From contig NW_015165238.1 in the NCBI RefSeq assembly GCF_001447785.1, forward strand, positions 343,633 to 407,632: a stretch of 64,000 nt of DNA. The letters are read 5' to 3'. A model generated the notes under the pieces. It saw only the letters and a list, made by a program, of their open reading frames with translations, made no database searches and was not told the origin of the DNA. This DNA is from Gekko japonicus (taxonomy: Eukaryota). Numbering within the stretch: position 1 is the first letter of the stretch; the number at the start of each line of letters is the position of its first letter. The translations under genes and the position numbers were made by a program. Positions 11,127 through 52,256 of this stretch are shown piece after piece.

Positions 11127-11793
11127 GTCACACCCAGCCTGGATTGCACATTCAACCTTTTTCATGACTTTTACATCTGTTTTACATTTACATGGTACTT
11201 CCTGCATCCTCTCCTTCCCCTTCCTCTTTCCACCTATATATCTCTGGCCAGTTTCTTCATACCCTCCATGCATCTGACGAACAGAGCATCTCTTCATGAA
11301 AGAACAATTTAGCTTTCTGACATGAATTGACCAGGCAATGAAGTGACTATTAAATGAATGTCTTGTCAAAATCTGATCCAATTTTGTATGGTATGGGATT
11401 TTTTATGGTTTTAGTAGCTAAGGCTTGTAGAATACTTTTTTTCTCATTTGGAAGATGCTATAGGAATCATGGCATAGGATAGTTTATTATCATGGCAGCC
11501 CTAAGCAGCGTTACACCCTTCTAAGCCCACTGAAGTCAATGCCATAGGAAGGCATAGTTGAAACAACACGAATGTCACTGTAGGGTTAATGGAATAGCAT
11601 CTCTTCATGAAAGAACAATTTAGCTTTCTGAGATGAATTGACCAGGCAATGAAGTGACTGGTTGGTGAAAACTGTTTTTCTTCCTCTCCTGCATGACAGA
11701 CCCCCTGCAGAACTGCTAATCCTTTAAATGTTTTGAATTAGAATTATATCTAATACTTCCTGATACATTCTTCTGTTTCAGAGGTACCTGAGC

Positions 11794-12771
11794 ATGAATT
11801 CAGAAGAAGGAAACCAAACAAGCCCTACAGAATTCATCCTCCTAGACTTCAATATCAAAGATCTACAGATTCTACTTTTTATACTGTTCCTTCCTATCTA
11901 CCTTGTGACCATGGTGGGAAACATCCTCCTTGTTGTGCTTGTGTTCATTGATCAGCACCTTCACACCCCCATGTACTTCTTCCTGGGGAATTTGTCCTTC
12001 TTGGAGACCTGCTACAGCTCAACCATTATGCCGAGAATGCTGATCAGATTTCTAAGTGGGGATAAAGGCATTTCCATAGGTGGCTGCATTGCCCAAATGT
12101 ATTTCTTCGGGTTTCTTGCAACCACTGAATGTTATTTTCTTGCAGTAATGTCTTATGACCGTTATTTGGCAATATGCAGGCCGTTGCATTATGCAATGCT
12201 CATGAATGGAAGAATCTGCATCCTCTTGATTGCTGTTTCCTGGATATTTGGAGCACTGAAACTTGGTATTGTAATATTTTTGGTGTCTCGGTTGACTTTC
12301 TGTGGACCCAACAAAATTAATCATTTCTTCTGTGATTTCACCCCAGTGATAAGGCTCTCTTGTGATGACACCTATGTAGTTGAAATGACCCTCCTGATAT
12401 TCTCCTCCATAGGCACTCTGTTCCCACTGGTCATAATTGTCATATCTTATGTTAGCATCATTAAGAGTATATTGAGAATCCCATCCACTACTGGGAAACA
12501 AAAGGCCTTCTCCACTTGCTCTTCACACATCATTGTGGTGTCCTGTTTTTATGGGTCTTTGATGATAGTCTATGTCTTACCAAACACCAGCTCCCTGAGG
12601 GAGGTGAAGAAACTGTTCTCTCTGTTCTATACACTTCTCACCCCACTGGTCAATCCACTCATATATAGCTTGAGGAACAAAGAAGTAAAGGAAGCAATGC
12701 AGAAAAATTTCAAGATTCTTAGGTCCTTGCCACACGGCAGGGAAAACACCAGCCAAAGTGCGGCTAATTAG
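11794..12771 (+). CDS. Olfactory receptor, class II, intact 325 aa; last 16 aa come from a MITE
   Basis: LHTPMYFFL, MSYDRYLAIC, KAFSTCSSH, NPLIYSLRN; NQT sequon; acceptor ttctgtttcag 12 nt upstream of ATG. Confidence 0.97.
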   Translation: MNSEEGNQTSPTEFILLDFNIKDLQILLFILFLPIYLVTMVGNILLVVLVFIDQHLHTPMYFFLGNLSFLETCYSSTIMPRMLIRFLSGDKGISIGGCIAQMYFFGFLATTECYFLAVMSYDRYLAICRPLHYAMLMNGRICILLIAVSWIFGALKLGIVIFLVSRLTFCGPNKINHFFCDFTPVIRLSCDDTYVVEMTLLIFSSIGTLFPLVIIVISYVSIIKSILRIPSTTGKQKAFSTCSSHIIVVSCFYGSLMIVYVLPNTSSLREVKKLFSLFYTLLTPLVNPLIYSLRNKEVKEAMQKNFKILRSLPHGRENTSQSAAN

Positions 12772-13166
12772 AGCCGCACCAAAATAGAAATGCCGCAGTG
12801 GGATCCCACAGATCCCCTTAGCCGCGGCGCCGTTGCTCCCCGGCATGATCAGATGCCGGGGAGGAAGCTACAGTTGGGAGGGGGAGGCTGCCGAACTGCG
12901 CATGTCTGAGCATGCACAGTTCGGGCAGGAGCCGGGGATGCACCAGCAAAAGGACGCGCCGGCGATCCCACGGCTGGCTTTGATGCGGCCTTCTCGGATG
13001 AACCACCACGGTAGGTGGTTCATTTTTTCACTGGGGTTTTGGGTGGAAGGGGTGGATCGGGAATGGGCGCGCAACGCTTCCCAGATGTTGTGGTGGGATC
13101 GCGCCCATTTGCTGTGCCCCCGATCCGTCCCTCTCCTGGCCCAAAACCTCTCATGTGACCGGGGCC
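12722..13166. mobile_element. Harbinger-like MITE inserted in the 3' end of an OR CDS
   Basis: TTA TSD; imperfect TIR ggtccttgccacacg / ggccccggtcacatg; CpG-rich. Confidence 0.82.
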
Positions 13167-16100
13167 TTACTATAGCAAAATGAAATGCATGAGGGAATTT
13201 GACTGTATGTCTTCTAAGTGTTCATAATGGAGGCAATGAACTAGAATGCTTTCTGCCAAATTACAAAGAAGGAATCCTGATTGCATGCAATCAAGTTAGA
13301 GGGACTTCTTAAGACGTCACAACTATCAGGATACATTTTTACTAACTGCATGTGTATCTTTTGATCATCCCTCATACTGGCATAATTTGGTTGGAAGTAT
13401 CTAGAGATTCTGTGAATTAGTTCGCCAGGCAATTTTGATAAAATCATTATCAGCTATTATTGTGAGCCAGTCTCTGCAGATTACTTTGTTAATCCAGCAA
13501 ACACCACTATCACCTTGTGAGCTGACTAAAATTAGCTTTTTTGCCTAATCATGGTGTTCACTGACTGACTCACCAGCTGAAGAATTGAACTGGCTCCGTT
13601 GAAACACATTGGTGTACTGAGAAGACCAGTTTAGGACTGCACTCTGAGTCCCCACTGAAATGGCATTGCTCAGAGGAGGCTCTGGGACTACAATGACTGC
13701 TTTAGGATGGGAATGAGATCTGCCAAAATGAAATGATGATCCCTGGGAGTAGAATGATCAAGTAGGGAACATACAGAAACTTGCAGAGGACATCTAATTT
13801 TCCCATGTATCCCCTTCCCTGCTGTTTGTCTGTTCTTTCCCATGGCAGCCTACACTTAGAATCACGGCCCCTTTCCTCTTTGCTTTTTACCATCCATCCT
13901 TTTGAAGACTTCTGATAAATTTGAAAGCTTGCACAGTATTTTGGAAATTTATGGATTTGGCTTTTGAGATAAACAAATATAAAAGCAGAGGAAGTGTACA
14001 GGAAAAAATACACCATCTGCAAAGATGTTGCTTGGAAAGCCAATTCTTTTGGCTAGGACACTGCCATGATAATGTGTCGGACTGTTATATTGCATCCCTG
14101 TGCAGAGTTGTTCCTGTCTAAGCCCAAGTAAGTTAAATGTCTTTGACTGGAGTAACTCTGTTTAGGATAGCACTGTCAGAAAGTGCTTCCCCTCTCCTGA
14201 CTTCTTTTTGTACAGTTTGTAGACCGAGCTGTGAGATAAAATTTAATGGTGAGTTTGGGGTAAAAATAATGAGGATCCATACTTTGAATTCATGCTTTGG
14301 AACCCTGTTTTTGCACCGTGGTAGTACCATAACGCTGTGGATCCATATTTGGTGTGTTTTTTTGTGTTGTTTTATGGTGCAATCTGTGGGCATGGCTGTG
14401 ATTTTCAATTGAAATGTATGTTTGGGGTAAATAACATGAAGATCCATGAATATCTGTGCCTTTGGATCCATGCCCCACTCATGCTTCAGACACAATCACA
14501 TCTTCCTAAATTGGCATGAGGGGGACCTTTACCAGTGGTGTTTTGCTCCCCCTAAAGAGGTCTACTGAGATGAAAGACCCCTTTCATCTCATTCTACTTG
14601 TGGATATCATATTAGACTCCATACCATAGTTTTTCTGGATCATGTCTAAGTTTTTTTTGGGGGAAACTGAGCTCTTTTGCAAAGGTATGCAGAAAATCCA
14701 TGCTGACAAAAGCAAAAGGTAGGGTCTAATATAATAAAAGCAAAATAATTAATTTTGGTAGTCTTTTGTCATCGATTTTAGTTTGGTTGCAGAGAAAATA
14801 ATTGTGCAGCAGCACCACTGGGCTATGTAACAGACCACACATGTGTGAAAGCTAAGCTTGTATGCATGCTGGTTTGTGGCCAGCCAGTGAGCTGCTATGA
14901 AGAAGAAGANNNNNNNNNNNNNNNNNNNNNNNNNNNNNNNNNNNNNNNNNNNNNNNNNNNNNNNNNNNNNNNNNNNNNNNNNNNNNNNNNNNNNNNNNNN
15001 NNNNNNNNNNNNNNNNNNNNNNNNNNNNNNNNNNNNNNNNNNNNNNNNNNNNNNNNNNNNNNNNNNNNNNNNNNNNNNNNNNNNNNNNNNNNNNNNNNNN
15101 NNNNNNNNNNNNNNNNNNNNNNNNNNNNNNNNNNNNNNNNNNNNNNNNNNNNNNNNNNNNNNNNNNNNNNNNNNNNNNNNNNNNNNNNNNNNNNNNNNNN
15201 NNNNNNNNNNNNNNNNNNNNNNNNNNNNNNNNNNNNNNNNNNNNNNNNNNNNNNNNNNNNNNNNNNNNNNNNNNNNNNNNNNNNNNNNNNNNNNNNNNNN
15301 NNNNNNNNNNNNNNNNNNNNNNNNNNNNNNNNNNNNNNNNNNNNNNNNNNNNNNNNNNNNNNNNNNNNNNNNNNNNNNNNNNNNNNNNNNNNNNNNNNNN
15401 NNNNNNNNNNNNNNNNNNNNNNNNNNCACTTAACCACTATACCAAACTGGCTCAGTGATTATTGATCTAATCAACCAATACTTTGGTGGCATATGCACAT
15501 GTGGTGATTAAAAGATAGTCTGAACCTGCAGTAGTTTGGGCATCCCTAGAAAGGGATAATCCTCAAAACAAAAGCCTGAGGCCTTGGAACCTTCTTGGAC
15601 TTGGGACAGGAGCACCAAGAAAGATCCTATTATCCTTGACCCATAGACCTCATAGCTAGGGGGATAAAACATGGCACACTTCCCTCGGACACTAAAGAAG
15701 GCTTTGCAAGGAGGAGCAGGAGCTATACCCATGTGAGGGCTTGGAGCCAGGGTGGATGCACAAAGAGAGGAGGCCTGGCTTTCTGCATCTCACCAATTGC
15801 CTGCACTGTAATTTGGTCTGAAATGAGTGTTTGGCCTTTGTGCACCGTCAAACTCTCTTGAGCAATGAAAATACAGTTGACCTTTTGATTATCACAGCTT
15901 ATAATGTTGGCTGTCCTTATTCCATGTCTGCAGGCAATTTTTTTTTTAATGGATTATTCTTCAAAGCTAGGCTGTCCCCAGGTTTCTAGAAAAACCTTCC
16001 CTTTCCACAGGGAAAAATCTCCCTTTTATGTATCTGAGCCCATTGTGCGGATTTTTTCATTTGTGCTCAGGAGCTAAGTTGAGAATTAGATGTGTACGTA

Positions 16101-17888: not shown

Positions 17889-17992
17889 AAAGGTCTTGAT
17901 CTGAATAGCAGTGGGTACGAAAGAGAGTGGGAAAGGGAGGGAGTTAATCTCTAATCTTTTCCAGTACACAATATATGATTTCTTCTTTACAG

Positions 17993-18979
17993 ATGCAGCA
18001 TATGAAAAACTCAGAGTGGCAAAACAGAACTGCTGTCACCACCTTCATCCTTCTAGGGTTTGGCAATGCTGAGGATCTGAACATTCTCCTTTTCTTACTA
18101 TTTCTAGCTATCTACCTTGTGACTCTGTCAGGCAATCTTCTCATTGTCCTCCTGGTGATGTTTGACCAGCACCTCCATACTCCCATGTATTTATTTCTGG
18201 CAAATCTGTCCTTTTTGGAGTCCTGCTACACTTCAACAATATTACCAAGAATGCTGGCCAGTTTTGTCACAAGGGACAAAACCATCTCGCTTTTGGGTTG
18301 CATTCTTCAGATGCATTTCTTTACTACTCTGGCAGCCACAGAATGTTACCTCTTGGCTGCTATGTCATATGATCGCTACCTGGCCATATGTAAACCTTTG
18401 CATTATGCCACACTTATGAATGAGAGAATGTGTATCCTGCTTGTTTCAGTATCATGCATAATTGGCCTACTTCTTATAACCATCTTAACATGTTTGGTTT
18501 CACAGCTTAACTTTTGCAACCGATATATAATTGACCATTTCTTTTGTGATTTCACCCCCATGGTTCGACTTTCCTGTAGTGACACCCAGGTTGCGGAAAC
18601 GGCAGCTTTTATAACATCGTCTATAGGGATTCTACCTACATTTCTTGTAACTGTGGCATCCTATGTTTTTATTATCACAACAATCCTGAAAATCCCTTCC
18701 ATCACTGGGAGACAGAAGGCGTTTTCCACCTGCTCCTCTCATCTCACTGTAGTTTCCATTTTTTATGGCTCCTTAATGTTTGTCTATGTCTTGCCGACAA
18801 CAGAGAAGTTCAAAGATCTCAATAAGGTCTTCTCTTTATTGTATACATTCCTAACGCCAATGGCCAATCCTTTCATATACAGCCTAAGGAACAAAGAAGT
18901 AAGGAGCAGTCTTAGAAAACTGGTATACCAGTTCTGGGAGTTTTCTGTGACACAAAAGAAATTATGCATCTGTGATTGA
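17993..18979 (+). CDS. Olfactory receptor, tandem copy A
   Basis: All OR motifs present; ORF track starts at 17975 but ttcttctttacag|ATG indicates a start at 17993 (or the next Met). Confidence 0.96.
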   Translation: MQHMKNSEWQNRTAVTTFILLGFGNAEDLNILLFLLFLAIYLVTLSGNLLIVLLVMFDQHLHTPMYLFLANLSFLESCYTSTILPRMLASFVTRDKTISLLGCILQMHFFTTLAATECYLLAAMSYDRYLAICKPLHYATLMNERMCILLVSVSCIIGLLLITILTCLVSQLNFCNRYIIDHFFCDFTPMVRLSCSDTQVAETAAFITSSIGILPTFLVTVASYVFIITTILKIPSITGRQKAFSTCSSHLTVVSIFYGSLMFVYVLPTTEKFKDLNKVFSLLYTFLTPMANPFIYSLRNKEVRSSLRKLVYQFWEFSVTQKKLCICD

Positions 18980-20233: not shown

Positions 20234-21623
20234 TAAAACTAGCTTTTCCACTAGTGGAAAAGAGAGAAGAGACTCACAAATGGTTGAATATAGCTCAGCA
20301 TGGCTGTAACAGTTCATTGAAGAATGGGTGTGGTAATATTTTGAGATATTTCAATGTCTACACTTGCTTTAATGTTTTAAAAGTAATATTAAATTGTAAA
20401 GGTGTAGTACTAAATTCTGGAATCAGAATTGCAATTTTACTTCGGAGACCACAAGGTCTGCACTTTCAGGATACATTATTTAAAATCTAAAAAGTCCAAG
20501 GACTGCTTTAGAAGTTGTACAATCTAAAATCCAATCCTATGCATATTTTCTCAAAAAAATGTTAATAAGTTTGATGGAACTTAAAAGAAACAGATTGTAG
20601 CCTTGGATGTTCTCTCAACTAACATCTTCTAAAAGTTCAAAATTCAATACTTCGGTTTGACAGGTTTGACACATTCCTCTGTGGCTGAGAGATGCTAGGA
20701 GGAAGCTCGGTCTGGTGACAGGGAGAAGGAACACTTTGGGATATGGAGGTGAGGGGGTTAGTGGGCCAGTGGCATGAACTGGGTGGCCTCCCTTAATAGG
20801 GAGAGTCTGGCCCAGTGGTCCTTCTGTGAGGAATGGGTAGCTGGCAACATCTGCATCTGAGGAAGGGCAGGGAGAACCCTTATGAGTACGAGGGATAAGA
20901 AGATTTGGAGAGGGCCTTGAGTGCAGGTCCAGATGTTAGGGTGATCATTAAAGGAGGTAGTCAAGCATAGCCTGGGGTAGATGGGGGGGAGGAGAGAAGG
21001 GTGGTACACAGCATGAACCACTGTGTAAGCTCATCAGTATACTGCAGATATGACAGAATCTTCATGTCTGGGAGTTCTTCTTGCAATGGGAAGAAGGCTA
21101 TGGAAACATATCCAACTTGTTGTGCCCCAATTGTGCAAGCATCTCATCAGCCCACATTAACAGCTATACTCCCTCTCAAATGCACAGTTCATATAAACAT
21201 ACTCATAGAAACATGCCTGTCCCTCAAGCACAATCACCCTTCTTACAAACCAAACATATCAGTAATGCCTCCCTGGGTTTACCTGCAGATGTGCAATTAA
21301 GGATGGCGGAGTTTACTGTAGCATTCTTCACCACAGCCCAGCCTAATATACAGATTATGATTATGCCAACCCTTCCTAGTAGAACAGCAAATACTTGGGC
21401 ATTGGAGTGGGATAAGCATGAGCTCTTGTTGAGGTGGTAAAAGGAAATGTTGTGTGGTTGCCCCATGGGCCACACCTGGCTACTGGCCTCGCCATAGAAC
21501 CAATAGTGAAAAGAAGGGAAGAGGGATTTTCTAAGAGGGATTTTCTAAGCCCTGTGCCAATGGATGCATGCAACTGCTTCTCTGCTTTCAAGAGAAATGT
21601 GAGGCTGCTCCCACTCTGACAGC

Positions 21624-23402
21624 TAGGCCCGTAGCTAACAACTTTTTGCTCAGGGGGCCCATATTTTTCTCAGGGGGCCACCACCAGTATGTTCCCTCTA
21701 AGATGTGGAGTTTTGTGAGCAAAACTTCTACTTTGTGAGCTACTGCCATTAAAGCTTCAGTGCAGCCTGCAAGACAGGAATTAGGAGGGCGACAAGGCGC
21801 AGCTCCACCAAAGGCAAGAGGCGCGGGCAGCCAGGGCATCCTCTTACCGCAGCAGCTTGCAGCAGTGGGTCAGCCTTGTCCTTCCCCGGAAAGCGGCTGG
21901 GGAATCTGGCGGGGGCCAGAGACTGCCTCGCCTGTGGCCGAGGAGGGCCAGCAGGGTGCCGAGAAAGAAGGAGCCGGCGGTGCAGCACAAGTAGAAGAGG
22001 AGACGGAGCAGAAGCAATGCCAAGCATTGCTGTCCTCCGGGTGCCTCTTCCTCCGCGCACAGTCGGCCCAGGTGGAAAAGGGGCACCGCTAGCAGGCCGC
22101 CCCCGCCCAGTGACAAAGTGCAAAAAGATCGGAGAGATTGACAGCTATGTACAGATCTGTGGTTGCCCTTTTGCCCCACCTCCCCGCCACGATGGAGGGG
22201 CACCCGGGCGTGACCCCCCGAACAACTTTGGTGCGCTCTCGTTTACCCCCTTCCCTTCTGCCCCACGTAGAAAGGCCTGGTGAGACGGCAGGGATTGGCA
22301 CGGGGGCAAAATGGCTGAGGGAGGGAGGGGGCTCTGCCTTGGTGTCTCTATTCTTCCCCCCCCCCCACACTTGGGACCCATCGGACTTCCTTCGCTGCCA
22401 CTGTCAGGCACCCCAAAGGCCCCCGCAAGCGAGAGGAGACGGGAAGGCTCGGGGAGCGATGCGCGTGTAAGAGGCAACAGGCCTTGCAAACCCTTCCACG
22501 CGTCCGCACCATGGACTGGAAGCAGTCTCGGGCCACCGGGTCTGCCCAAGAATGTGGCCGTTCTGGGGAGGGGGGGACGCAGCCCTTTAGGCTGCTCCGT
22601 CAAGGTGGCCAGGCTGGAGAAAGCGAGGGACAAGAAAGCGGACTCCGCATTTGCTGCATTGCAGCACGGGGGGGGGTGCTCCCCCACAGCAGACTGTGGC
22701 CCCGCAGATGGCCACTGGGACGCAGTGTGGAGGAGCCCCCGAGGGGGGAGACGATGCTGCCGTGTTGAGAAATCCCGGGGAGGGAGGGGGGAAACCCGCA
22801 TCTGGGCGCTGCTTCCCTTGCTTCTGCACTAAACGGACCAGGGGTGTGTGTTGGGAGTGCGGCAGCAGTCCCAGCCCGGTGGCAGCAGCATAGAGCGGGA
22901 CAAGCCACCGCGCTCCAGCATCACCGGCGTCTCCTCCTCGTCGTTGCCTTCGGCCACGGTTGCTAGGATGCTGCTGCTGCAGGATTCGCTGCCTGAGACT
23001 CTGAGCTTCGTGCGCTCTGCGCATCCCACGGCAGGGCTCGCCGACTCAAGCTGGCCGCTGCTGCTGCTGGAGATGTTAGCAGTGGTGTCTGCATTGGGGA
23101 ACATGCTGCTCCAGCCAGTGGCGGGAACAAGCGCATCTCCCACCCAGGAGGCCCGCTTGCAAGGTCGCGTGGCCCTGCAAAGACACGGGGGGCGGAGAAG
23201 GCTTTGCAGGGACCCGCGCTTCAGCACAGCCCTGCAAAGACGTGGGAGGGCCCGCCCCTGTTGTCGTGGCGCCTTGAGGAAGATGAAGGCGCCTGTCATT
23301 GGGAGAGACGCAGGGGGAGGAGGGGGAGCAGAGGATGGGGGAGGAGGCCCGCAAAACCCGTGGGGTCCAGGCCCTGAGGGCCCCACGCAGGCTACGGGCC
23401 TG
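21624..23402. mobile_element. Non-autonomous hAT element with GC/CpG-rich cargo
   Basis: TIR (t/c)aggcccgtagc; perfect 8-bp TSD ctgacagc (21616-23, 23403-10); empty site ccactctgacagcacatttt at ~33081. Confidence 0.92.
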
Positions 23403-23604
23403 CTGACAGCACATTTTGAGACTCTGCTGTTCTGTCCCTGCACCAAAGCAGGCTTCACAGGCTTCAGAATGGGAGGAGAGGGGATAGTATTTCCTGGTTG
23501 CTCCTTATCCGTGTTGTGCTCAGCCCTTGGTGCTGCACATGGGAGGCCAACACTTTCCTCTCTGGCCTCTTCCTGGAGCTACCATTTAAAGACAGCAAGG
23601 CCAC

Positions 23605-23933
23605 AGTGGCTCAGAGGTTAAGATGCTGAGTGGAAGACCAGAAGGTCTGTAGTTCATCAGTTTAAGACCCTAGTGCTGCATGATGGAGTGAGCTCCTATC
23701 TGTGGCCCCAGCTCTGGCCAACCTAGCAGTGTAAAAGCGCATGTAGAGAAATAGGTACTGCTTCCGTGTAAAGGTAACAGTGTTCCATGTGCCTCAGCAT
23801 TTAGTCATGTCAGCCACATGACCAGAGAAATGTCTTTGGACAGTGCTGGCTCTTCGGCTTGGAAATGGAGAGGGGCACTGCCCCCTAGAGTCAAATTCTA
23901 CTAGCTTTTGAGCAAGGGAAACCTTTACCTTTT
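23605..23933 (+). mobile_element. Sauria SINE
   Basis: tRNA-like head, (accttt)n tail, TSD aggccac; empty site at ~33281. Confidence 0.85.
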
Positions 23934-24529
23934 AGGCCACCTTGCCCCATGCAGTCCACCTGTTTGACCCAGGCTCTTCCCTCCCCTGGGTGGATATTGG
24001 TCCTCTTGGGCAGACCACACCCAGCTGCCCATCTTCTTTTGCCCCCTTTTGACTGCCTTCAGCTACCTTAGGTGGGATGCCTTCTCAGCCACCTTGACCC
24101 TGACCCATCTAAGCCCTGCCCTCACCTGAGCTAGCCATTCTGCCAGTCCAGGCTTGATGATAAGGAGTTGCCACCGGCCTCTGGTCCTGGGCTGAGCAGT
24201 GCAGGGCTGACCGGCCAGTTTGGGGCTTATTTGGGGGCAGCACTGCTCCAGATCACTCAGAAGATCTGCTTGTTGAAAGGATAGGTGGAAAAAATTATCT
24301 CTCTGTAACACCATTTATTTTATTTTATTTTATTGGAATCAATAGTTTAGCGCATGCACTACTGCATCCTCTAAATGACCTCTGCATGGGCCCGTGTTGC
24401 GGGGAGGGCGGGGTATAAATTGAATTAAATAAATAAATATCAGACAACACCATAACTTCTTATTTTTCTTATACTGTCACAAAGAATATATTTCCCTTTA
24501 GAAAATAATTGCATCTCTACTACATAATC

Positions 24530-25708: not shown

Positions 25709-26241
25709 GGCTGAATTCAGACTTGCAGTTTGCAGTGCTATGGAGTCGCTGCAAAGAAGACCCAGAACAGAGCCGTAATGGCCTGGTCCCGGTATTTCTG
25801 TTCACATAGCAGCAAATCAAGCGGGAGGATACCGTGGAGGAAGCACAAGGGAGCGTTGGCACTGTAGGGCCACCCCTGGCGGCTCTTGCGGCTGTTTTGG
25901 CACTTGGCCGCATCTGCAAATAGGGCAGGATCGCAAAGCCACCACCAGCATTGGAACAGCCAGCATCTATTAGCAACGTCTCCTTTGTTCCTGCCTTACA
26001 GCACTTGCGTTCACACAGTCAGGAACCGTAATCAACACGCTATCCACATGCTCTCTGCCTGGTTTGCTACCACTTCCAGGTGGTACTTTTTATACTTGAG
26101 AGGGGAGTGCTACAAAATGGTATGAGTACGACTGGAGGACGACAGACAGATTTGCCTGTATGAACCCGCGCCTTTGCGCCGCTACTCAGTCGCTCCTGAA
26201 ACGTTTCCCTGTCGGTCCAAACTGCCAGTCTGAACTTGGCC
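25709..26241. mobile_element. Harbinger-like MITE
   Basis: TTA TSD; ~24-bp imperfect TIR ggctgaattcagacttgcagtttg; empty site at ~42781. Confidence 0.88.
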
Positions 26242-30439: not shown

Positions 30440-32450
30440 GGGTGCGTTCAGACGCGGCCTTTCTGCCGGCATAAACTGCACCGGTTCCAACCGGTGCAGT
30501 TTATGCCAGCTGAAACGCGATCACACTCACCTCCATTCTCATTCACCAAAATACAGAAAGTGCAGATAATCAAACGCCAGGCTAAAACAGCGTGGGGGAG
30601 CTGATCCCTAGGCGGCTAAGCAAGGATCTCGACATGGGCGAAGGAAGGGGAAAATCAACAGGAGAGTAAAGAAAGACTCATCCAAGACGGAGTTTAAAAA
30701 CGTGGCCACAGAAATGGAGAGTTAAGGAAGCCTTACCTGTAATGTATTGGTAATGTATCTGTCCAGACCAGAGCAAGTAATTAAAGAGGACGTTTCCGAA
30801 CTGAGGAATGAGCTACAGAGGAAAGAAGCACTGATTCAGAAGCACTTGGGGAAGCTGCGACACTGGCACCAAGTTCTTGAAGACCTCAATGTGCAGCATA
30901 AAAAGCCGGCTGAAATGCCTCAAGGAGCTTTGGCTTACCTAGAGCAAGCTTCGGCAAATATCCCAGCACCTCTTAAGCAGACATGAACAAGCAAGCTCAT
31001 TCTACTTTTAGAACACCATCTCTACTTTTGAGACCAAGTGATGTGGGAACTTTTAAAAACCTTGTTGAAGTTGAAAAAGAAAGTAAATGAGAACACCCAC
31101 ACCCTCCCCTCCCCCCCTAGTAACAAGATGTTTAAACAAGCTGTAAACGTCAACATTGATGAATGCATGCAATAAAACTAGAATAACAAACTGTTAGCAA
31201 GAACCAAGTGCAGGATCCTTATGGAAGCTAGAAGTCACGTCTGGAGCTTTAAGCAAGTTTCCTTGTCAATGCAGTTCTGGCGATCTCTTGCTTAAGTGGG
31301 AAGACAGAAAACACCGAGGAAGTTAAAACAAACAACAAGCTAGTGAGAAGATGATTAACTGAAATGAGGAATGTTTTATAGATGGTTCCTTATCCTTCCA
31401 CTGAGGTGAGACCTAGTTTTTAAACTTTCAGCAATATTGCTAAGGTTGAAAATGCAATTTGTCATCTAGGGAGGGGGCTTCTTTTTGTGTGTATTCTATC
31501 TGGGAGGGGGGGAAATGAAACTGCAACTTGGGAGTGTAGACTGAAGACACTGCTGTTGGGGGTATTCAAAATAGTAATTGGAAGAACAGCAGCAAGCTTC
31601 CTTCTTAAATATTGCATGGGTGCCCTGGGAAACAGTAGTAAAAAGAAAGACTCAGCCACTGAAGGGATTGCTTCGTGCCTTGCTTTTCTGGCTGAAGTCA
31701 TGTCCTTTGGTTCCTGACAGCGCCGTGTCCTGAAGGGTCTCTTCAAGATAACCTCAGCTTCGTTGTTCAAAGTCACACAATGGAGAACCCAATAGGTAGC
31801 TAACCTGAACGGCACNNNNNNNNNNNNNNNNNNNNNNNNNNNNNNNNNNNNNNNNNNNNNNNNNNNNNNNNNNNNNNNNNNNNNNNNNNNNNNNNNNNNN
31901 NNNNNNNNNNNNNNNNNNNNNNNNNNNNNNNNNNNNNNNNNNNNNNNNNNNNNNNNNNNNNNNNNNNNNNNNNNNNNNNNNNNNNNNNNNNNNNNNNNNN
32001 NNNNNNNNNNNNNNNNNNNNNNNNNNNNNNNNNNNNNNNNNNNNNNNNNNNNNNNNNNNNNNNNNNNNNNNNNNNNNNNNNNNNNNNNNNNNNNNNNNNN
32101 NNNNNNNNNNNNNNNNNNNNNNNNNNNNNNNNNNNNNNNNNNNNNNNNNNNNNNNNNNNNNNNNNNNNNNNNNNNNNNNNNAAATAAAATGGCGGGGGAA
32201 AACCGGAAGCCTCAGGCTTCCCACGGAAATGCCTAGGCACCGGTGGAGAGCGATCAGACGCCGGTTTGCATCGGAAGCCACCGTTGCACCCTGTTTACCA
32301 CCACTTCCGACCTAGTGGCAGAGTGCAATGGTGTACAGCTCTTTACAACGGATAGAGAGGGAAGACAGATGTTCCCCGTCTGAACGCCGGTATGTACATC
32401 GATTGCAACTGGCACAGAATCCGTTGTAAAGGCTGCGTCTGAACGCACCC
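30440..32450. mobile_element. Non-autonomous PIF/Harbinger-like element carrying the MED28 fragment
   Basis: 23-bp TIR gggtgcgttcagacgc(g/a)gccttt; ATA TSD at 30437-39 and 32451-53; empty site gttcatataaacatac in copy A (~21187). Confidence 0.88.
30756..30986 (+). pseudogene. MED28: 5'-truncated MED28 (Mediator subunit 28) fragment, apparently processed; probable 3'UTR continues toward the gap at 31816
   Basis: [72 protein letters not shown] matches the vertebrate MED28 C-terminus; upstream tct gtc cag (SVQ) is out of frame by a 2-nt deletion. Confidence 0.93.
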
Positions 32451-32689: not shown

Positions 32690-35600
32690 CTATCCCTCAA
32701 CCACAGTCACCCTCCATACAAAACAAGCATACCAATAATGCCTCCCCAGGTTTACCTGCAGATGTGCAATTGAAGGATGACAGAGCTTACTGTGACATTC
32801 TTCACCACAGCCCAGCCCAAGAGACACATGATGATGCCAAACCTTCCTAGGTATATAGTACAACAGCTTATACTTGGGCATGGGGGGGGCACTCATGGGG
32901 CTCTTGTTGAGGTCGCCAAAGGAAATGTTGGGTGGTTCCCTCATGGGCCACACCTGGCTACTAGCCTGGCCAAAGGGCAAAAAGGCAAAAGAAGGGAAGA
33001 ATAATTTTCTAAGCTCTGTGCCAATGGCTAGCCATGCATGCAAATACATCTCTGTTTTCAAGAGAAGTGTGAGGCTGCTCCCACTCTGACAGCACATTTT
33101 GGGACTCTGCTGTTCTATCCCTGCACTGAAGGAGCCTTCACAGGCCTCAGAATGGAAGGAGAGGGGATAGTATTTCCTGGTTCCTCCTCATCCGTGTTGT
33201 GCTCAGCCCTTGGTGCGCCACATGGGAGGCCAACACTTTCTTCTCTGGTCTCTTCCTAGAGCTACCATTCAAAGACAGCTAGGCCACCTTGCCCCATGCA
33301 GCCCACCTGTCTGACCCTGGCTCTTCCCTCCCCATGGGTGGAGATTGGGCCTCTTGGGCAGACCACACCCAGCTGCTCATCATCTTTTGCCCCCTGTTGG
33401 CTATCTTCACCTGGCTTTGGTGGGATGCCTTCTCAGCCACCTTGACCCTGACCCATCTAAGCCCTGCCCTCACCTGAGTCAGCCATTCTGCCAGTCCAGG
33501 CTTGATGATAAGGAGTTGCCACTGGCCTCTGGTCCTAAGTCGAGCAGCGCAGGGCTGGCCGGCCAGTTTGGGGCTTATTTGGGGGCAGCACGGCTCCAGA
33601 TCACCCAGAAGATCTGCTTGTTGAAGGATAGGTGGAAAAAATTATCTCTCTGTAACACCATTTATTTTATTTTATTGGAATCCATAGTTTAGCACATGCA
33701 CAACTGCATCCTCTAAATGACCTCTGCGTGTGATATCATTCAACACCATAACTTCTTATTAGTTTAGCACATGCACAACTGCATCCTCTAAATGACCTCT
33801 GCATGGGATATCAGTCAACACCATAACTTCTTATTTTTCTTATACTGTCACAAAGAATATATTTCCCTTTAGAAAATAATTGCATCTCTACTACATAATC
33901 TGCTCCTGGGAGAGTATAGGTATTTTAATTGCCCCATTGGCATAGGTCCCTAGGGAATCCCTTATATATATATATGAATGTGGGGAAATGAGAGCTAGTA
34001 CATACTGGTTCACTTATGGGACAACAGTACAGATACAAAGAAGGTATTGCTACATCTACCACATTGTATTTTATTATACAAAGAAAGGGTGACAGATGAT
34101 GGAACCACACAAGCCAAGCAGACTTCAATAACATTCACTGAATGTGAAGACAACCTATTGTGGGCCTTGTCCCAGTCATACCAATGATGCAGGTAATGCA
34201 GCTTACTTCTCTATTGGAAAGGAAAACAGTGGATCGGATCCTATTAGTTTTTTTCTGCTCAGTCTTACTACTATTCTGTACCTCCCATTCCATGGTGTAT
34301 GTGTGTGTCTTAGGACACTGATCATACTAGGTTTTTGTAGAATCGTCAAAGTACAATGACATAAATGTTCATAGTGGATGAGTTACCTGAAAGAAATGTA
34401 TGTATCTTTCTACATAATGAAGAACCTTGAGGGAATCATGGAAAATGTCAATGTTATCAACACTACTGCTTTCATCACTACACCCAGTTTCCTGTCTTGG
34501 CTTAGTTATCCGCTTCTGCAAACTCGGCAGGAGAGAGAGAGGAAAAACCTGTGGAAAATGAAGGTGGTATGAAACAATATGTATATATTTCTGGCTTGTA
34601 AAAGAGGGTTCTTTGAAACTAGGAGAATCTTTTGCAACATCCTAAACAGAATTAAACCTTTCCAAACCCATTAAAGTCATATGGACTTAGCAGGGTATAA
34701 CTCTGTTTAGGATTGCACTGTTAGAGAGTGATGCTTTGAAACTATTTCCTATCTGCCTGCCAGCATACCTCTATGTGCTCAACAAATACTCTACTAATAC
34801 TAAAGTTCATTGCAAGAGGGATCACAAATCTCCAAGATTTTATGCTGTTCAATGAATCTATGTCTGAATCTTTCTAGGGGATGGCAAGATGGCATTATTC
34901 ATTTTTGTAATTTAATATAGCTTTTGTTCAACACATTTATTTAGACAGTTTCTGCATCATATTATGTCTAGTGTATATATTTGACTTCCACATTATGTTG
35001 GCTTCTGAGAACTTGTGATCACCAAGGGCAAAAATCTTAATTCCATGTCCAGAGTTTTGATCACATCTCATTCTTAGGCCGAATTCAGACTGGCAGTTTG
35101 CAGTGCTATGGAGTCTGATCATATCTCATTCTTAATGTTTCCTGCTCTTCCCCCCTCATTCTACAATACAGTCTTGTACACCAAATATCAAACTGCTGAA
35201 ACATTTATGTAAAAGTAACCTTGAAGAATGTAAACAAAATCTGTTTTTTGCAAAAGTATTTATAGTAATATAAGATAAGCTATCATGCAGATTGCAAATA
35301 AAGCACACAATTACATTAAAAGACATAAAATTGCAAGTGGGACATAAACCCTGCTGAAGTACAATCCAGAGGGACTGATTCTATGAACAATCTTCTTTAT
35401 GCTGTAAGAACAGAAGAAAGCCTTCTCTTTAACAGCTAAGTTCTTTGGAGCATGAAGTTTTCTTCTTCTTTCCTCATGTTTTTAGAATTCCCAGTTTTAG
35501 TGAGTTCGGTAAATGTGCGGAAAGGAGAAAACTTTGGGTTTGTGCCTGGTGAACAAAAATCGACTGCAGAAAATCTCCCTATATAATAATTCTCTGTTGG

Positions 35601-36679
35601 TGGTGGCACATTGCTGAACATTTCACATGGCTCCCACAGCCTTTGGCTCCATGATCTGTCAGTCAGAAGCTCTCCCTATCCATGGGCTGCGTTGCCTGAG
35701 TCTCACCTCCAACATTCTAAACAGTTCGCTGTTCCTTTCCCCCCCCATAGCCAGTCAGAAAACAGAGGTTATTTGCATATGTGGCTTGATTGGCCTTTGC
35801 CTCAGAGCACAGAGGTCGTTAGAGGCCTTTGCCTCTAACACTCTAAACAGTTTTCTGTGGCTGTTCTGAGGTAAAATGTGTTCTGAGGTACCCTTAGTGC
35901 CTGTTGCGAGAAACCATTCTTGCCAATCTCCAGTTTAGGGCTGAAGATCACTCAGAATTACAACTGCTTTCCATATGGCAGAGATCAGTTCCCCTGGAGA
36001 AAATGGTGGACTCTGTCTCCTTATATCCTGCTCAGATGCCCCCTGTATGAAAGCCAATGTGACATAGCAGTCAGGGCTTCAGAGCACGGTAGAGGCTGCA
36101 GGTGAGGGGAGGTGGAAAGCTGTCAAGTGAGTGGGAAATAAAGGTAGGTTGATGATTGGCTGGGAAGGAGATTGGGTTGCCAACTCCAGGTGGGAAATTC
36201 CTGGAGATTTGAGGGATGGAGCCTGGAGAGGGTGAGGTTTCAGGAGGGGTGGGACCTCATTCTGGTATAATGCCATAGACTCCACCTTCCAAACCAGCAA
36301 TTCCGTCATGGGGAACCATTGTTGCCAACCTCCAGGTGAGGGCTGGAGATCATTCAAAATTACAACTGTTCTTCAGGTAGCAGAGATCAGTTCCCCCGGA
36401 GAAAATGGTGAACTTGGTGTCATATCCTGCNNNNNNNNNNNNNNNNNNNNNNNNNNNNNNNNNNNNNNNNNNNNNNNNNNNNNNNNNNNNNNNNNAGGAA
36501 GGGAATGTGATTGTAAGCCACTTTGAGACTCCTTCAGGTAGTGAAAACTAAGGTATAAAACCCAACTCTTCTTCTAAAGGTCTTGATCTGAATAGCAGTG
36601 GGTATGAAAGAAAGTGGGAAATGGAGGGAGTTAATTCCTAATCTTTTCCAGTACTCAGTATATGATCTCTTATTTACAG

Positions 36680-46031: not shown

Positions 46032-49000
46032 AACCATGATTTATTTAATTCGTTTTTTTGCTGCTAATCAAAGTCTATTAGTTCTAGTTTCATCAAATGT
46101 CTGAGTATTTATTATCACTCCCTACTTTGTATGGGGGGGAAAGTGCAGCATTCAGTCATGTACATGTATGTAAAAAGACCTGGATTCAATCACTGACTCC
46201 TCCTGTTAAAAAAGATGTCAGTAGGCTACAGGTTTAAACACAATAGTCTAATATGGTCAAATGAACAGGGTTATTATTTTTTAACTGAAGCAGAGAACAA
46301 ATAAATTTTCTCCTTGTGGTTGGTTACACCAAGATTCACAACACTCCTGTCTGCTCTCGTTTGGTCTAGGGAAGCAGGGATTCCTGATGAGTGTACCTGG
46401 AGAAAGTACACTACTTGGGCTTGCTGTTCTGCACTTTGACCAGTTTTCTATGAACTGGATCCACCAGCAGAAGATCACAGTTCTCACAGCCACCAACAAG
46501 AGTTTCAGGGATCATGTTTGCTTGAGAGGTCCAGGCAACTCTTGGCTGATTAGGCTGTCTTGTGGGTTGAAAGATCTAAGATGTTTGGGCTAGATAGACC
46601 AGTGAACTGTCTCTCTAGAAGTAATATTATACAGACTTATGGGTTCACTGGACTGTGGGCTAAACTTTCAAATATGATACTAGATTTAACAACTGACAGT
46701 GCAATTTTCCCAGGTGCATGACCTGGGAGTAGAAGTAAATGGGATTCTGAGTTTAGGATTTGTTTAGGATTCCACTGTAAATCTGGCAGATATTTTATGC
46801 TGGTATATTGTGGTTGTGTGCCTCTTCAAAGACCAGCTATGGTAAGGAATTAAAAATAGAAATCCTTGGAAAAATTGGTAACATCAAGCCTGTAATTTGA
46901 TGCTCACTTAGATGGGATTCAGCCCCATGAACTCTAATGTGCCTAAATTCTGAGTATAGGATACTTTCATAGGGTTGTGCTGTAAATTTCAATTAACGCT
47001 GCATTTTTCAAAATGTAAAACTAGCTTTTCTTGCTCTGCTGTTGTATCCCTGCACCGAAGGAAGCTTCACAGGCCTCAGAATGGGAGGAGAGGGGATAGT
47101 ATTTCCTGGTTGCTCCTCATCCATGTTGTGCTCAGCCCTTGGCACTCCACATGGGAGGCCAACAGTTTCCTCTCTGGTCTCTTCCTGGAGCTACCATTCA
47201 AAGAAAGCTAGGCCACCTTGCCCCATGCACTCCACCTGTCTGACCCTTGCTCTTCCCTCCCCCGGGTGGAGATTGGTCTTTTTGGGCAGACCACACCCAG
47301 CTGCTCTTCATCTTTTCCCCTCTTTTGGCTGTCTTCCCCTGGCTTTGGTGGGATGCCTTCTCAGCCACCTTGACCCTGACCCTCACCTGAGCCAGCCATT
47401 TTGCCAGTCCAGGCTTGATGATAAGGAGTTGCCACTGGCCTCTGGTCCTGGGCTGAGCAGCGCATGGCTGGCCAGCCAGTTTGGGGCTTATTTGGGGGCA
47501 GCACTGCTCCAGATCACCCAGAAGATCTGCTTGTTGATAGGCTAGGTTGAAAAAATTATCTCTCTGTAACACCATTTATTTTACTTTATTGTAATCAATA
47601 GTTTAGCACAGGCACAATCGTATCCTCAACATGACCTCTGCATAGGATATCAATCAACACCATAACTACTTAGTTTGCTTATACTGTCACAAGGAATGTA
47701 TTTTCCTTTAGAAAATAATTGCATCTCTACTACATAATCTGCTCCTGGGAGAGTATAGGTATTTTCCATTTCCCCATTGACATGGGTCCTTAGGGAAGTC
47801 CTTACATATATGAATGTGGGGAAAAGAGAGCTAATACATACTGGTTCACTTATGGGACAACATTACAGATGCAAAGAACATGTTGCTACATCTACCACAT
47901 TGTATATTATTATACAAAGAAAGGGTGACAGATGATTGAACCACACAAGCCAAGCAGACTTCAATAACATTCACTGAATGTGATGAGAACCCATTGTGGG
48001 CCTTGTCCCAGTCATACCAATGATGAAGGTAATGCAGCTTCCTTCTCTATTGGAAAGGAAAACAGTGGATCAATTAGGTTTTTTTTTTGCTTCTTTGATA
48101 CTTGGAAATATATTGCAGCATCCTTAACAGAATTAAACTCTTCCAAGCCCATTGAAGTCAGTGGGCTTTGCAGGGTATAACTCTGTTTAGGATTGCACTG
48201 TTAAAGTGTGATGCTTTGGAACTATTACCTACCTGACACCATACTTCCGTGTGCTAAAAAAATGCACTACTAAAACAAAAGTTCACCGCAAAAGGCACTT
48301 CAAATCTCCAATATTCTCTGCTGTTCAATGCGTGTATTTCTGAATCTTTCTAGGGGATAGCAAGATGGTATTATTTATGTTTGTATTCTAGTATAGCTTT
48401 TATTGAACTCATTTATTTAGACAATTTCTGCATGTATAAATTAGACCTTCCACATTATGTTGGGTTCTGAGAAGTTGTGATCACAAGAAACATCAAGAAC
48501 TCTCCATGTGACATGTGACAGGGGTCTGATCACACCCCATTCTGATCATTGTTTCCTCCTCTTTCCCCCTCATTCTACAATCTGATCTTGTGTCCTAATT
48601 ATCAAACTACTGATACATTTATGCAAAAGCAACCTTGAAGAATATAAACAAAATCTGTTGGATTTGGGGTTTTTTTGCAAAAAATATGTAAAGTAATATA
48701 AAATAAACAATCATCCGGAGTGCAAACAAAGTACAATGTGTGTAATTACATTAAAAGACCTACAATTACAAGCAAGACATAAACCCTTCTGATGTACAAT
48801 CTTAAAGGGACTGAGCCTATGAACAATCTTCTTTATGCTGTAAGAAGAGAAAGAAACATTCTCTTTAACAGCCAAAAATAAGACCCTCGGAGCACGAAGT
48901 TCTCTCCTTTCCCAATGTTTTTGCAATCCCCAGTTTAAGTGAGTTCCAAAAAACATGGGGAAAGGAGGAAAAAACTATGGGTTTGCGCCTGTTGAGGAAA

Positions 49001-49077: not shown

Positions 49078-49430
49078 TTTAAGTGAATACAGAGATATTT
49101 CTGTTAACACATGCCTTGCACAATTGTATTTATTTGGTTTTTTCATAGCTACTGAATGTTATTTTCTAGCTGTATTATCTTATGATCATTATTTAGCAAT
49201 ATGCAAACCACTGTATTATGCTACCCCATGAATGGCAGAATTTTGATCCTGTTGATTGCTGTATCCTGGATGTGTGGATCACTGAGTGTCAACATCCTAA
49301 TATTCTTGGTGTTCCAGTTTACTTTTTTGTGGACCCACAAAATCAACCATTTTTTCCCATGTGATTTCACAGCAGTGGTGATGCTCTTCTGCAATGATAC
49401 TCATTTGGTTGAAATGACGACCTTCATAAA
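49078..49430 (+). pseudogene. Truncated, frameshifted OR pseudogene (TM3 to ECL2), closest to the 11794 gene
   Basis: CLAQLYLFGFFIATECYFLAVLSYDHYLAICKPL / MNGRILILLIAVSW / KINHFF-CDFT split across frames; 5' part absent; LINE debris at 3' end. Confidence 0.92.
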
Positions 49431-49449
49431 TTTCCTAGATTTTGGAATT

Positions 49450-49968
49450 CTTTTTTTTCTCCTTAATTTTTATTTGATTTTAACACATAATAGGATAGGA
49501 AGGGTACAAGGGATGGGATAAGACATAAAGGGAAGTTCCATCAAGTTTATATAATAGCTGTTACAAATTTTCCATCTTAATGCTTTGTTTCCAGATCTCT
49601 TTCATTTATATATTTACTAAAGCTAGTAACACTTAAACAAATCGCTAAAATCTTCTATAGTGATTCCTGAAGAAAGTCAAGTTGTGTACAGTTCAAGTTA
49701 GAGTTTCACCAAGTTTATAATAGTTATATTCATTGATCATGGTCTTCAAAGTTTCTTTCCACCCAGTCATAAAATGGTATCCAATTATCTCTTGCTTTTT
49801 GTTTACTTCGGTCTTTTAACAAGTCCAACAGTATATCAATTTCTACTGTTATAAATTATTCACAAGTTCATTTTCCGTTGGTATCTCTGATTTCTTCCAG
49901 TAGTTAGCATAAAGAATTCTTGCTGCTGTAACTATATGTATAATTAAGTGCTCAACTTTCTTATCTTT
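49450..49968 (-). mobile_element. L1/Tx1-clade LINE 3' fragment
   Basis: HIVTAARILYANYWKKSEIPT motif, AT-rich 3'UTR, AATAAA and A-rich tail. Confidence 0.7.
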
Positions 49969-52256
49969 TACTCCCATCTCTTTAAGGACTTGCCATAGTT
50001 TGTTGTGGTTCACACAATCAAAGGCTTTAGTGTAGTCAATGAAGCAGAAGTAGATGTTTTTCTGGTACTCCCTTGCTCTCTCTATAATCCAGCAAATGTT
50101 GGCAATTGAATCTCTAGTTCCTCTACCTCTTTGAAACCCAGCTTGTATTTCTGGCAGTTCTCTATCCACGTACTGCTGAAGTCTAGCTTGTAGGATCTTG
50201 AGCATGAACTTGCTAGCGTGTAAAATGAGTGCAACTGTGAAATAGTTTGAACATTCCTTGGCATTGCTCTTCTTTGGGATTGGAATATAAACTGACCTTT
50301 TCCAATCCTGTGGCCACTGTTGTGTTTTCCAAATTTTGCTGGCATATGGAGTGTCACAATGTCACGAACCTCCATCCATAGTTCTTCAGGCACTCCGTCT
50401 ATCAAATCTAGTCCCTTAAACTTATTCTTCACCTCCACTGTATATTCATCAGGGATGTGATGTAGGTCAAACCTGAATGGCCTAGTGGTTTCCCCAACTT
50501 TCTTCAGTTTAAGCCTGAATTTTTCAACGAGTAGGTCATATCTGAGCCACAGTCAGCTCCGGGTCTTGTTTTTACTGACTGTATGGAGCTTCTCCATCTT
50601 TAACTACAAATTATATAATCAATCAGATTTTGATGTTGCCCTTTTGTTGATGTCAATTTGTAGAGTCGCCTCTTAGGTTGTTGGGAGAGGGTGCTTGCTA
50701 TGACCAGTGTGTTCTCTTGACAAAACTCTGTTAGCCTTTGCCCGGCTTCATTTTATTCTCTAATGCCAAACTTGTCCATTATTCCAGTTACCTTTTGACT
50801 TCCTACTTTAGCATTCCAGTCACCTATGATGATAAGGACTGTATTGTATCCCATTACTGCCTTTCTCACTCTCTTGTTGACTATAAAGGCCACACCATTT
50901 TTTCTATGGGATTCTTGGCCACAGTAGTAGATATAATTCACCCATTTCTTTACAGGCTTTACAGTCTGTGGCGGGTTGGCTTAGACTGAGTCGACTGAAG
51001 CTGAATCCAGCGAAGACAGAGGTCCTGTGCTTGAGTCGGGGCGGTGCGGGGGCAGGGGCGGGGATCCCACTTCCGAACTTCGGGGGGGCTCCATTGGTGC
51101 CAGCACAGGAGGTGCGGAGTTTGGGTGTCCTCCTGGATCCCTCCCTCACTATGGAGGCCCAGGTGGTGGCCACTGCCAGGTCGGCCTTTTACCATCTCAG
51201 GCTGATCATGCAGTTGGTTCCCTTCCTCGACAGCGCTGACCTAGCAACAGTGATCACCTCAAGACTAGACTACTGTAACACTCTCTACATGGGGCTGCCC
51301 TTGTCATGGATCCGGAAGCTGCAGCTGATGCAGAATGCCGCGGCCAGGCTGTTGATGGGCCTCCCTAGACAAGAGCACATCCAGCCTGTGCTGAGGACAC
51401 TGCACTGGCTGCCAATAGCATACCGAATCCGCTTCAAGGTGCTGGTTCTTACCTTTAAAGCCCTATATGGCCGAGGTCCGACATACCTAAGGGACCGCCT
51501 TTCCCCGTATATACCCCAGAGAGCACTATGGTCAGGATCTCAAAATCGGTTGATCCTCCCTGGCCCGAGGAAGGGCAAGCTAGCTATCACCAGGGCCGGA
51601 GCCTTTTCAATGGCGGCCCCTACCTGGTGGAACAAGCTCCCGGAGGAGATCAGGGCCCTGCGGGACCTCCTGCAGTTCCGCAGGGCCTGCAAGACGGAGC
51701 TCTTCTGCCAGGCATTTAGTTAGGGGCTGCCGCTACTGCAGGCCACTGCGGGCTCCTACTGCAGGCCGCTATAGCAGAGCCTGGCCTGTGGTCTTAACAT
51801 CTAACTGACTAAGAGCAGAAAACATCACGGAACATCTGGGCAGTGGAAATTTATTCCTGTAATATACCATCTAGATTAATTTAATCTGCCGCCAGCCCTT
51901 TGTATTTATAATGTTTTATTGTATGGTTAAATATTGTGTATTTTAATGTATTTATGCTTTTATGGAAGCCGCCCTGAGCCCGCTCGCGGGGAGGGTGGGG
52001 TATAAGTTTGATAAATAAATAAATAAATTCCCATCCACCTTAGTTCACTGATTCCCAAGATGTCAATTTTCAGTCTTGCCATCTCATTTTTGACCACATC
52101 AAGCTTACGTTGATTCATAGATCTTACTTTCCAGGTTCCTATGCAGCATTGTTCTTTGCAGCATTGAACTTTCCTTTCACTGCCAGACACATCCACAGCT
52201 GAATGTCCTTTCAGCTTTGGCCCAGCCACTTCATTCTTTCTGGGGTTACTTGAACT
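49969..52256 (-). mobile_element. RTE-BovB LINE remnant, internally deleted and interrupted by L2
   Basis: MLKILQARLQQYV...IQAGF..GRGTRD...CFIDYTKAFDCV (RT); IGTWKVRSMNQ...IDILGISELRW and YYCGQESHRKNGVA (APE). Confidence 0.92.
50947..52026 (+). mobile_element. 5'-truncated L2 LINE with open ORF2 end (50968-51723)
   Basis: LKLNPAKTE, SRLDYCN, LQLMQNAAARL, LHWLPI; (taaa)n tail. Confidence 0.93.

Follow-up and report, generated by a model that had tools for sequence, protein, structure and literature searches.

Stop codons, C-termini and 3′ untranslated regions (UTRs) donated by transposons are already known, including from Harbinger elements in squamates (PMC8437027). In sea krait exons, the contribution of Harbinger-Snek, an autonomous and horizontally acquired family, is transcript-confirmed (PMC8437027). 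In SMN exon 6B (PMC4969610) and in a wheat coding exon that carries a miniature element (PMC6824096), transposon sequence is reported to replace the C-terminus. Here we describe a comparable locus in the gecko Gekko japonicus, within 64,000 nucleotides of contig NW_015165238.1 (hereafter the window; coordinates are counted from its first letter), where a 445-bp element at 12722-13166 interrupts the end of an olfactory receptor gene at 11794-12771. Like SMN and the wheat case, it concerns a replaced C-terminus, whereas here the replacement would come about by direct read-through of a coding-exon insertion, with splicing unneeded. Compared with Harbinger-Snek, the target in the gecko is an olfactory receptor and the element gives the predicted stop codon.

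[quoted passage not shown] The gecko element is likewise short and non-coding, with a TTA duplication, but its candidate terminal repeats are degenerate (10/15) and it is GC-rich. Tourist-like and PIF/Harbinger elements mostly excise precisely (PMC4561436), so a clean reversion of the gecko allele would be expected, provided that its ends can still be recognised by a transposase. Harbingers are described as unreported in solely terrestrial vertebrates (PMC8437027), yet two gecko genome papers do list PIF or PIF-Harbinger repeats, one annotating PIF elements in G. japonicus itself (bioRxiv 2023.04.01.535199) and the other listing such repeats in another gecko genome (PMC12549870). For G. japonicus, one study reports an expansion of receptors and deposits RNA-seq, and the gene at 11794-12771 is unmentioned in the parts drawn on here (PMC4673495). 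In a search of titles and abstract openings covering few subscription journals, none of the papers listed described an olfactory receptor tail derived from a transposon, which is weak evidence of absence.

An insertion before the end of an olfactory receptor gene

Six full-length olfactory receptor open reading frames (ORFs) and one broken fragment make the window a squamate receptor cluster. The ORF at 11794-12771 (+ strand) encodes 325 residues without an internal stop, 1-309 of them host-derived, and its protein ends FKILRSLPHGRENTSQSAAN, followed by the stop codon. Pfam 7tm_4 matches residues 35-306 (173 bits against a cut-off of 27, E 1.5e-50), the olfactory receptor motifs LHTPMY, MSYDRYLAIC, KAFSTCSSH and PLVNPLIYSLRN are all found, and RxK at tail positions 3-5 is the class II form; by match names the receptor is OR11L1/6B1-like. 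At columns conserved in at least 90% of 65 homologues (alignment A1, which leaves out 55 of the 120 matches listed), it deviates in 3 of 136, and all three changes are common to Heteronotia and Paroedura. The coding exon has a probable splice acceptor, a pyrimidine tract plus AG at 11766..11781 (+ strand), 12 bases 5′ of the ATG, whose use we infer from its sequence. A preliminary description of this DNA had called the receptor intact, and with the reading frame uninterrupted up to and into the insertion we agree that the gene, as far as its sequence tells, is an intact class II receptor gene. The broken fragment, at 49079-49464, is a frameshifted and truncated olfactory receptor that is nearest in DNA to this gene (76% over 309 bases).

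The element is flanked by two copies of TTA, at 12719..12721 and 13167..13169. Its terminal inverted repeats, at 12722..12736 (+) and 13152..13166 (−), match at 10 of 15 bases, and both ends begin GG. The boundaries and the duplication were placed exactly in the preliminary description; a 4-bp CTTA duplication, judged by eye, was rejected as making the end match worse. In composition the element stands apart from its surroundings, with a GC content of 0.62 compared to 0.40 and 0.39 in its two 500-base flanks and a CpG observed/expected ratio of 0.74 compared to 0.13 in the coding exon and 3′ flank. Its strand folds far more stably than 100 shuffles (z = -7.5) because it contains several internal hairpins. 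By eye, the six-frame translation is non-coding. The longest open stretch of the + strand (126 residues, one frame) has no match at E <= 0.01 among 496 longer-protein candidates, which is weak evidence, and two Rfam matches, both far under the gathering score, were rejected as chance.

Removing the element and one TTA provides the ancestral reading of the gene. Positions 13169-13183 (+ strand) then read TIAK-stop in frame after L309, so that the insertion lies four codons before the old gene end and exchanges four ancestral residues for sixteen (net +12). The OR11L1-like orthologues of Heteronotia binoei (P0001), Paroedura picta (P0005) and Euleptes europaea (P0006) are each 313 residues long, which is 309 + 4, and have a tail of 22 residues, counted past the NPxxY tyrosine, compared to 325 and 34 for the ORF in the window. 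Over the 309 host-derived residues they are identical at 289, 267 and 265 positions, respectively, and as the next-best single-domain matches of the receptor (after P0004, the RefSeq model of the gene itself) they score 94%, 86% and 85%. The window receptor and these three form a clade of four rows with a Shimodaira-Hasegawa-like approximate likelihood ratio test (SH-aLRT) support of 100. The tree is a quick maximum-likelihood one whose 41 rows are 35 of the 120 listed matches (85 left out) and the six window receptors. A tail of exactly 22 residues is found in 33 of the 52 squamate matches listed, a set that excludes P0003, P0008 and P0014 (long or fused models) as well as P0004.

To ask how specific this register is, the downstream DNA can be treated as 4,720 points at which the ORF might resume. 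A 22-residue tail results from 193 of them, of which five share at least two of the four orthologue residues, and among these five only 13169 has TT before it and coincides with the element end. The preliminary description had proposed TIAK-stop as the ancestral end. The register and the stop position match the three 313-residue orthologues, and the isoleucine and the terminal lysine also agree with orthologue ends; none of the three, however, ends in TIAK itself as that description had expected, with Heteronotia ending ILPITK, Paroedura ILPIRK and Euleptes IHHMRP, so that the last four are PITK, PIRK and HMRP. By the genetic code, one base each could account for the P/T and T/A differences from Heteronotia. 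With proline as the ancestral residue, the Gekko lineage would have had to gain the TTA target ahead of the insertion. Because the TIAK-stop end restores the orthologue register, the insertion is the derived state, and it would have occurred on the Gekko branch, after the split from the other sampled geckos.

Is the inserted DNA a transposon? Taken alone, the degenerate repeats count against it, as does the lack of a second full copy in a BLASTN search of the window, which returned just 12-25-base matches. A window-wide scan for TWA-GG...CC-TWA pairs matching at 10/15 or better found three, where 100 shuffles gave 2.3 on average, and terminal repeats plus duplication were accordingly rejected as sole proof. 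Other evidence is more telling. The right end of the element is identical at 14 of 15 bases to the right end of a 521-bp element at 2041-2561 (12 of 15 to its left end), with about 0.002 such sites expected by chance. This second element has its own 3-bp duplication, ATG, lies in the opposite orientation and is a distant relative of the 445-bp element (local score 48, against 46 for the highest of 200 shuffles). Two further GG...CC-ended elements have paralogous sites in the same tandem cluster that are empty, near 42785 for the one at 25709-26241 (TTA duplication) and near 21195 for the one at 30440-32450 (ATA duplication). The end match, the empty paralogous sites and the breakpoint fixed by the orthologues, along with the distinct composition and folding, make the transposon call secure.

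These data also bear on whether the 445 bp might have come from faulty assembly, or might be some unrelated GC-rich insert whose ends are similar by chance. The 10/15 repeats, the scan at chance level and the missing homologous copy would fit such an origin; an exact 3-bp duplication at a breakpoint that restores the orthologue register would not, nor would the match to the second element, and N gaps are absent within 2 kb upstream and 1.7 kb downstream of the element. We consider this origin extremely improbable, and that a genomic insertion took place we hold with high confidence.

The superfamily is a separate question. The TTA duplication fits the PIF/Harbinger target, and the GG-ended repeats resemble what we take to be vertebrate Harbinger ends. 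Kolobok and piggyBac elements duplicate TTAA, which is found at neither flank, and CACTA/EnSpm ends start CACT rather than GG, so both identities were rejected. The safest label would therefore be a MITE-like, non-autonomous element of PIF/Harbinger type, likely a MITE in the strict sense of a high-copy family of uniform size; an autonomous PIF/Harbinger partner, which would encode a DDE transposase and a Myb-like protein, was not recognised within the window.

The predicted new C-terminal tail

The codons from R310 to N325 and the new stop occupy 12721..12771 (+ strand). The R310 codon takes one base, the final one, from the target duplication and its other two from the start of the element, and the TAG at 12769-12771 lies inside the element. 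As the preliminary description had it, the transposon would supply sixteen residues, a stop codon and the proximal 3′ UTR. The first AATAAA 3′ of this stop, putatively used, is at 14733..14738 (+ strand), and none occurs inside the element.

We propose that a non-autonomous PIF/Harbinger-type transposon, mobilised in trans by an externally supplied transposase, would have inserted by cut-and-paste into a TTA across codons 309-310 of a single-coding-exon receptor gene and duplicated its target. Translation would then continue 16 codons into the element and end at its TAG, and the remaining element together with the old TIAK-stop would become 3′ UTR. The receptor would still fold, traffic and signal; its tail, longer and unstructured, would most likely be tolerated rather than selected. 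We regard this whole sequence, from insertion in the Gekko lineage through read-through to tolerance, as probable.

One argument for tolerance is the location of the junction. In the tail numbering of Kotthoff et al., which starts from the NPxxY tyrosine, helix 8 spans positions 5-15, the main motifs lie at 3-15 and the mean length of olfactory receptor tails is 25 (PMC12315510). The insertion junction comes after position 18, past helix 8, so helix 8 and the main tail motifs are untouched, and the element-derived residues take positions 19-34. Since the insertion spares all seven helices as well as helix 8 and the motifs close to the membrane, the receptor is most likely still functional. A tail of 34 residues is also ordinary for this cluster, in which the five neighbouring window receptors have 31, 32, 32, 32 and 35; tails of at least 34 occur in 9 of 119 matches listed (P0068, with no NPxxY near its end, being dropped from the 120). 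An AlphaFold2 model from a 66-row alignment agrees with this argument, placing a helix at 296-310 with coil for residues 311-325, but is too poor to count (mean predicted local distance difference test, pLDDT, 53; predicted template modelling score, pTM, 0.36).

The preliminary description went further and suggested a functional effect of the new tail, citing added serines and threonines. The addition itself stands, as the count of these residues past tail position 18 goes from one before the insertion to four now, but it is within chance for this DNA. When the element is shuffled, 19.5% of stop-free 16-mers have at least four serines or threonines, 23% contain RxxS/T, and a stop falls within 16 codons in 42% of shuffles. 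By these three measures the new tail resembles a random sequence of the same composition, and with the junction past helix 8 and a length usual for the cluster, an effect is not what the data favour.

Several points nevertheless weigh against a tail that is simply tolerated. OR8D1 lacking tail residues 16-18 loses about 40% of its surface expression and signalling (PMC12315510), so the stretch directly following helix 8 cannot be regarded as inert. The strong conservation of a 22-residue tail in the subfamily hints at a length constraint. Receptor phosphorylation by GRK3 and PKA, with arrestin binding, terminates olfactory signalling (PMC7676898), and 49 of the 52 squamate matches listed have at most two distal serines or threonines, compared to four in the new tail, five 5-mers of which are in none of the 120 matches listed. 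In favour of tolerance, lineage-unique substitutions in the window receptor and Heteronotia number 7 vs 7 and 9 vs 7 with two outgroups, which gives no rate excess, though in a comparison that has low power and mostly covers the time preceding a young insertion.

Some of these points could be taken together as retuning. The new tail might offer S311, T319, S320 and S322 as GRK3/PKA sites and lead to stronger β-arrestin-2 desensitisation. Alternatively, trafficking might be altered because the terminal lysine is gone. In either case the allele would have been kept for that reason. Besides the arrestin pathway and the four distal serines and threonines, the lysine gives this idea some appeal, as it is common to the three Gekkonidae ends and gone in the new tail. 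Against it, both the serine/threonine count and the RxxT are at the level expected by chance for element DNA, none of the retention or export motifs of Tables 1-2 of PMC12315510 has been created (by eye), and PMC7676898, in the parts used here, does not put olfactory phosphorylation sites in the distal tail. We think retuning unlikely.

The opposite outcome would be a mildly harmful insertion, or one that silences the gene via methylation or mRNA destabilisation, making it an incipient pseudogene or a rare variant of the sequenced animal. A CpG-rich, strongly folded element could act in this way and is consistent with a young insertion, and receptor genes show fast turnover, of which the broken fragment at 49079-49464 is a local example. 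The receptor, however, carries no stop, no frameshift and no private change at a highly conserved position, and the absence of a rate excess points in the same direction. Decay or silencing is also unlikely in our view; the insertion is genuine, with a new tail that is most likely tolerated.

The RefSeq model and a splicing alternative

RefSeq model P0004, named Gekko japonicus, matches the ORF at 100% over 83% of its length but ends FKILRCSI. It does not carry the read-through tail, and this must be added to the points above. P0004 carries the label PREDICTED and begins at M40, without the first 39 residues and thus part of helix 1. Upstream of this start, 11794-11910 provides an in-frame ATG and an N-glycosylation site. 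Four other short gecko models begin at the same methionine, which suggests a recurring annotation fault.

If P0004 is taken at face value, the insertion is spliced out: an exon end at 12722 is joined to 17993, 5,270 bases on, to give a chimeric protein that ends RCSI-stop and again has a 22-residue tail. This join matches P0004 at every letter from M40 onwards, and no other canonical solution exists in the window. The acceptor is the neighbouring receptor's own (17968..18005, + strand, comprising the AG at 17991-17992 and the first 13 bases of that receptor's coding exon, read out of frame in P0004), and the same acceptor context is found at two paralogues. The donor is less convincing. It lies at the junction of target duplication and element (12720..12728, + strand; intron from 12723), agrees with the splice donor consensus at five of nine positions and departs from it at -3, +3, +4 and +5; in the same exon, 21 of 47 upstream GT sites equal or beat it. 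The AATAAA at 14733 comes well ahead of the 17993 acceptor. P0004's PREDICTED status, together with a start like that of the four short models, suggests a gene-finder's choice, and its donor exists because of the insertion alone. We consider the RCSI end a probable gene-finder artefact and removal of the element by splicing unlikely, and retain read-through into the element as the probable route to the new C-terminus.

The two outcomes need not exclude each other. One insertion could have two outputs, a read-through tail whose extra phosphorylation sites change desensitisation and a junction donor that links two receptor loci in one transcript, with a 22-residue tail. This combination seems to us distinctly improbable. 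If it were true, with both outputs made in olfactory neurons and the allele fixed in Gekko, nature would have set up a three-way experiment that shows what the distal tail does.

Other features of the window, and what the variant offers

Between 17806 and 48100 the cluster consists of tandem units of about 9 kb with four close receptor paralogues, at 17975, 27187, 36662 and 45033. Those at 36662 and 45033 share 99% protein identity, and the four units differ by transposon insertions. The element at 25709-26241 is 533 bp long with terminal repeats matching at 12/15; a paralogue near 35077-35115 retains just ~39 bases of the left end, after which the flank is briefly repeated. An end-like motif at 48505-48526, 13/15 to the right repeat of the 445-bp element, lies within a short insertion at the site paralogous to 25709 and is possibly a remnant. 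A GC-rich insert at 21624-23403 (about 0.61 in the 22001-24000 bin) is absent from the paralogous units and contains several chance-looking ORFs, one of which was scanned and has no Pfam match. The 190-residue ORF at 51151-51723 likewise has no Pfam match and resembles the end of a long interspersed nuclear element (LINE) reverse transcriptase ORF.

The element at 30440-32450 has a perfect 16-bp terminal inverted repeat and ATA on both sides, with part of it hidden by a 366-N gap. Inside it, at 30768-30986, is a C-terminal coding piece of Mediator subunit MED28 with its stop (Pfam Med28, E 4.9e-13; MED28 residues 102-178 in PDB, E 3.9e-38), and an AATAAA follows at 31171. The appearance is that of a gene captured Pack-TIR-style, or else of a retrocopy sitting inside a DNA transposon. 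In the main text of a Pack-TIR survey (PMC8277862), the words gecko, lizard, reptile, Harbinger and MED28 have no occurrence.

Olfactory receptor tails vary widely, and to a specialist the gecko case will be neat rather than surprising. It flags an annotation problem, because the end that RefSeq assigns to the gene is chimeric and not the one read here. What makes the case valuable is that it is a clean natural variant of known polarity: ancestral and new ends can both be read in the DNA of a subfamily otherwise held at 22 tail residues, which makes the role of the distal tail directly testable.

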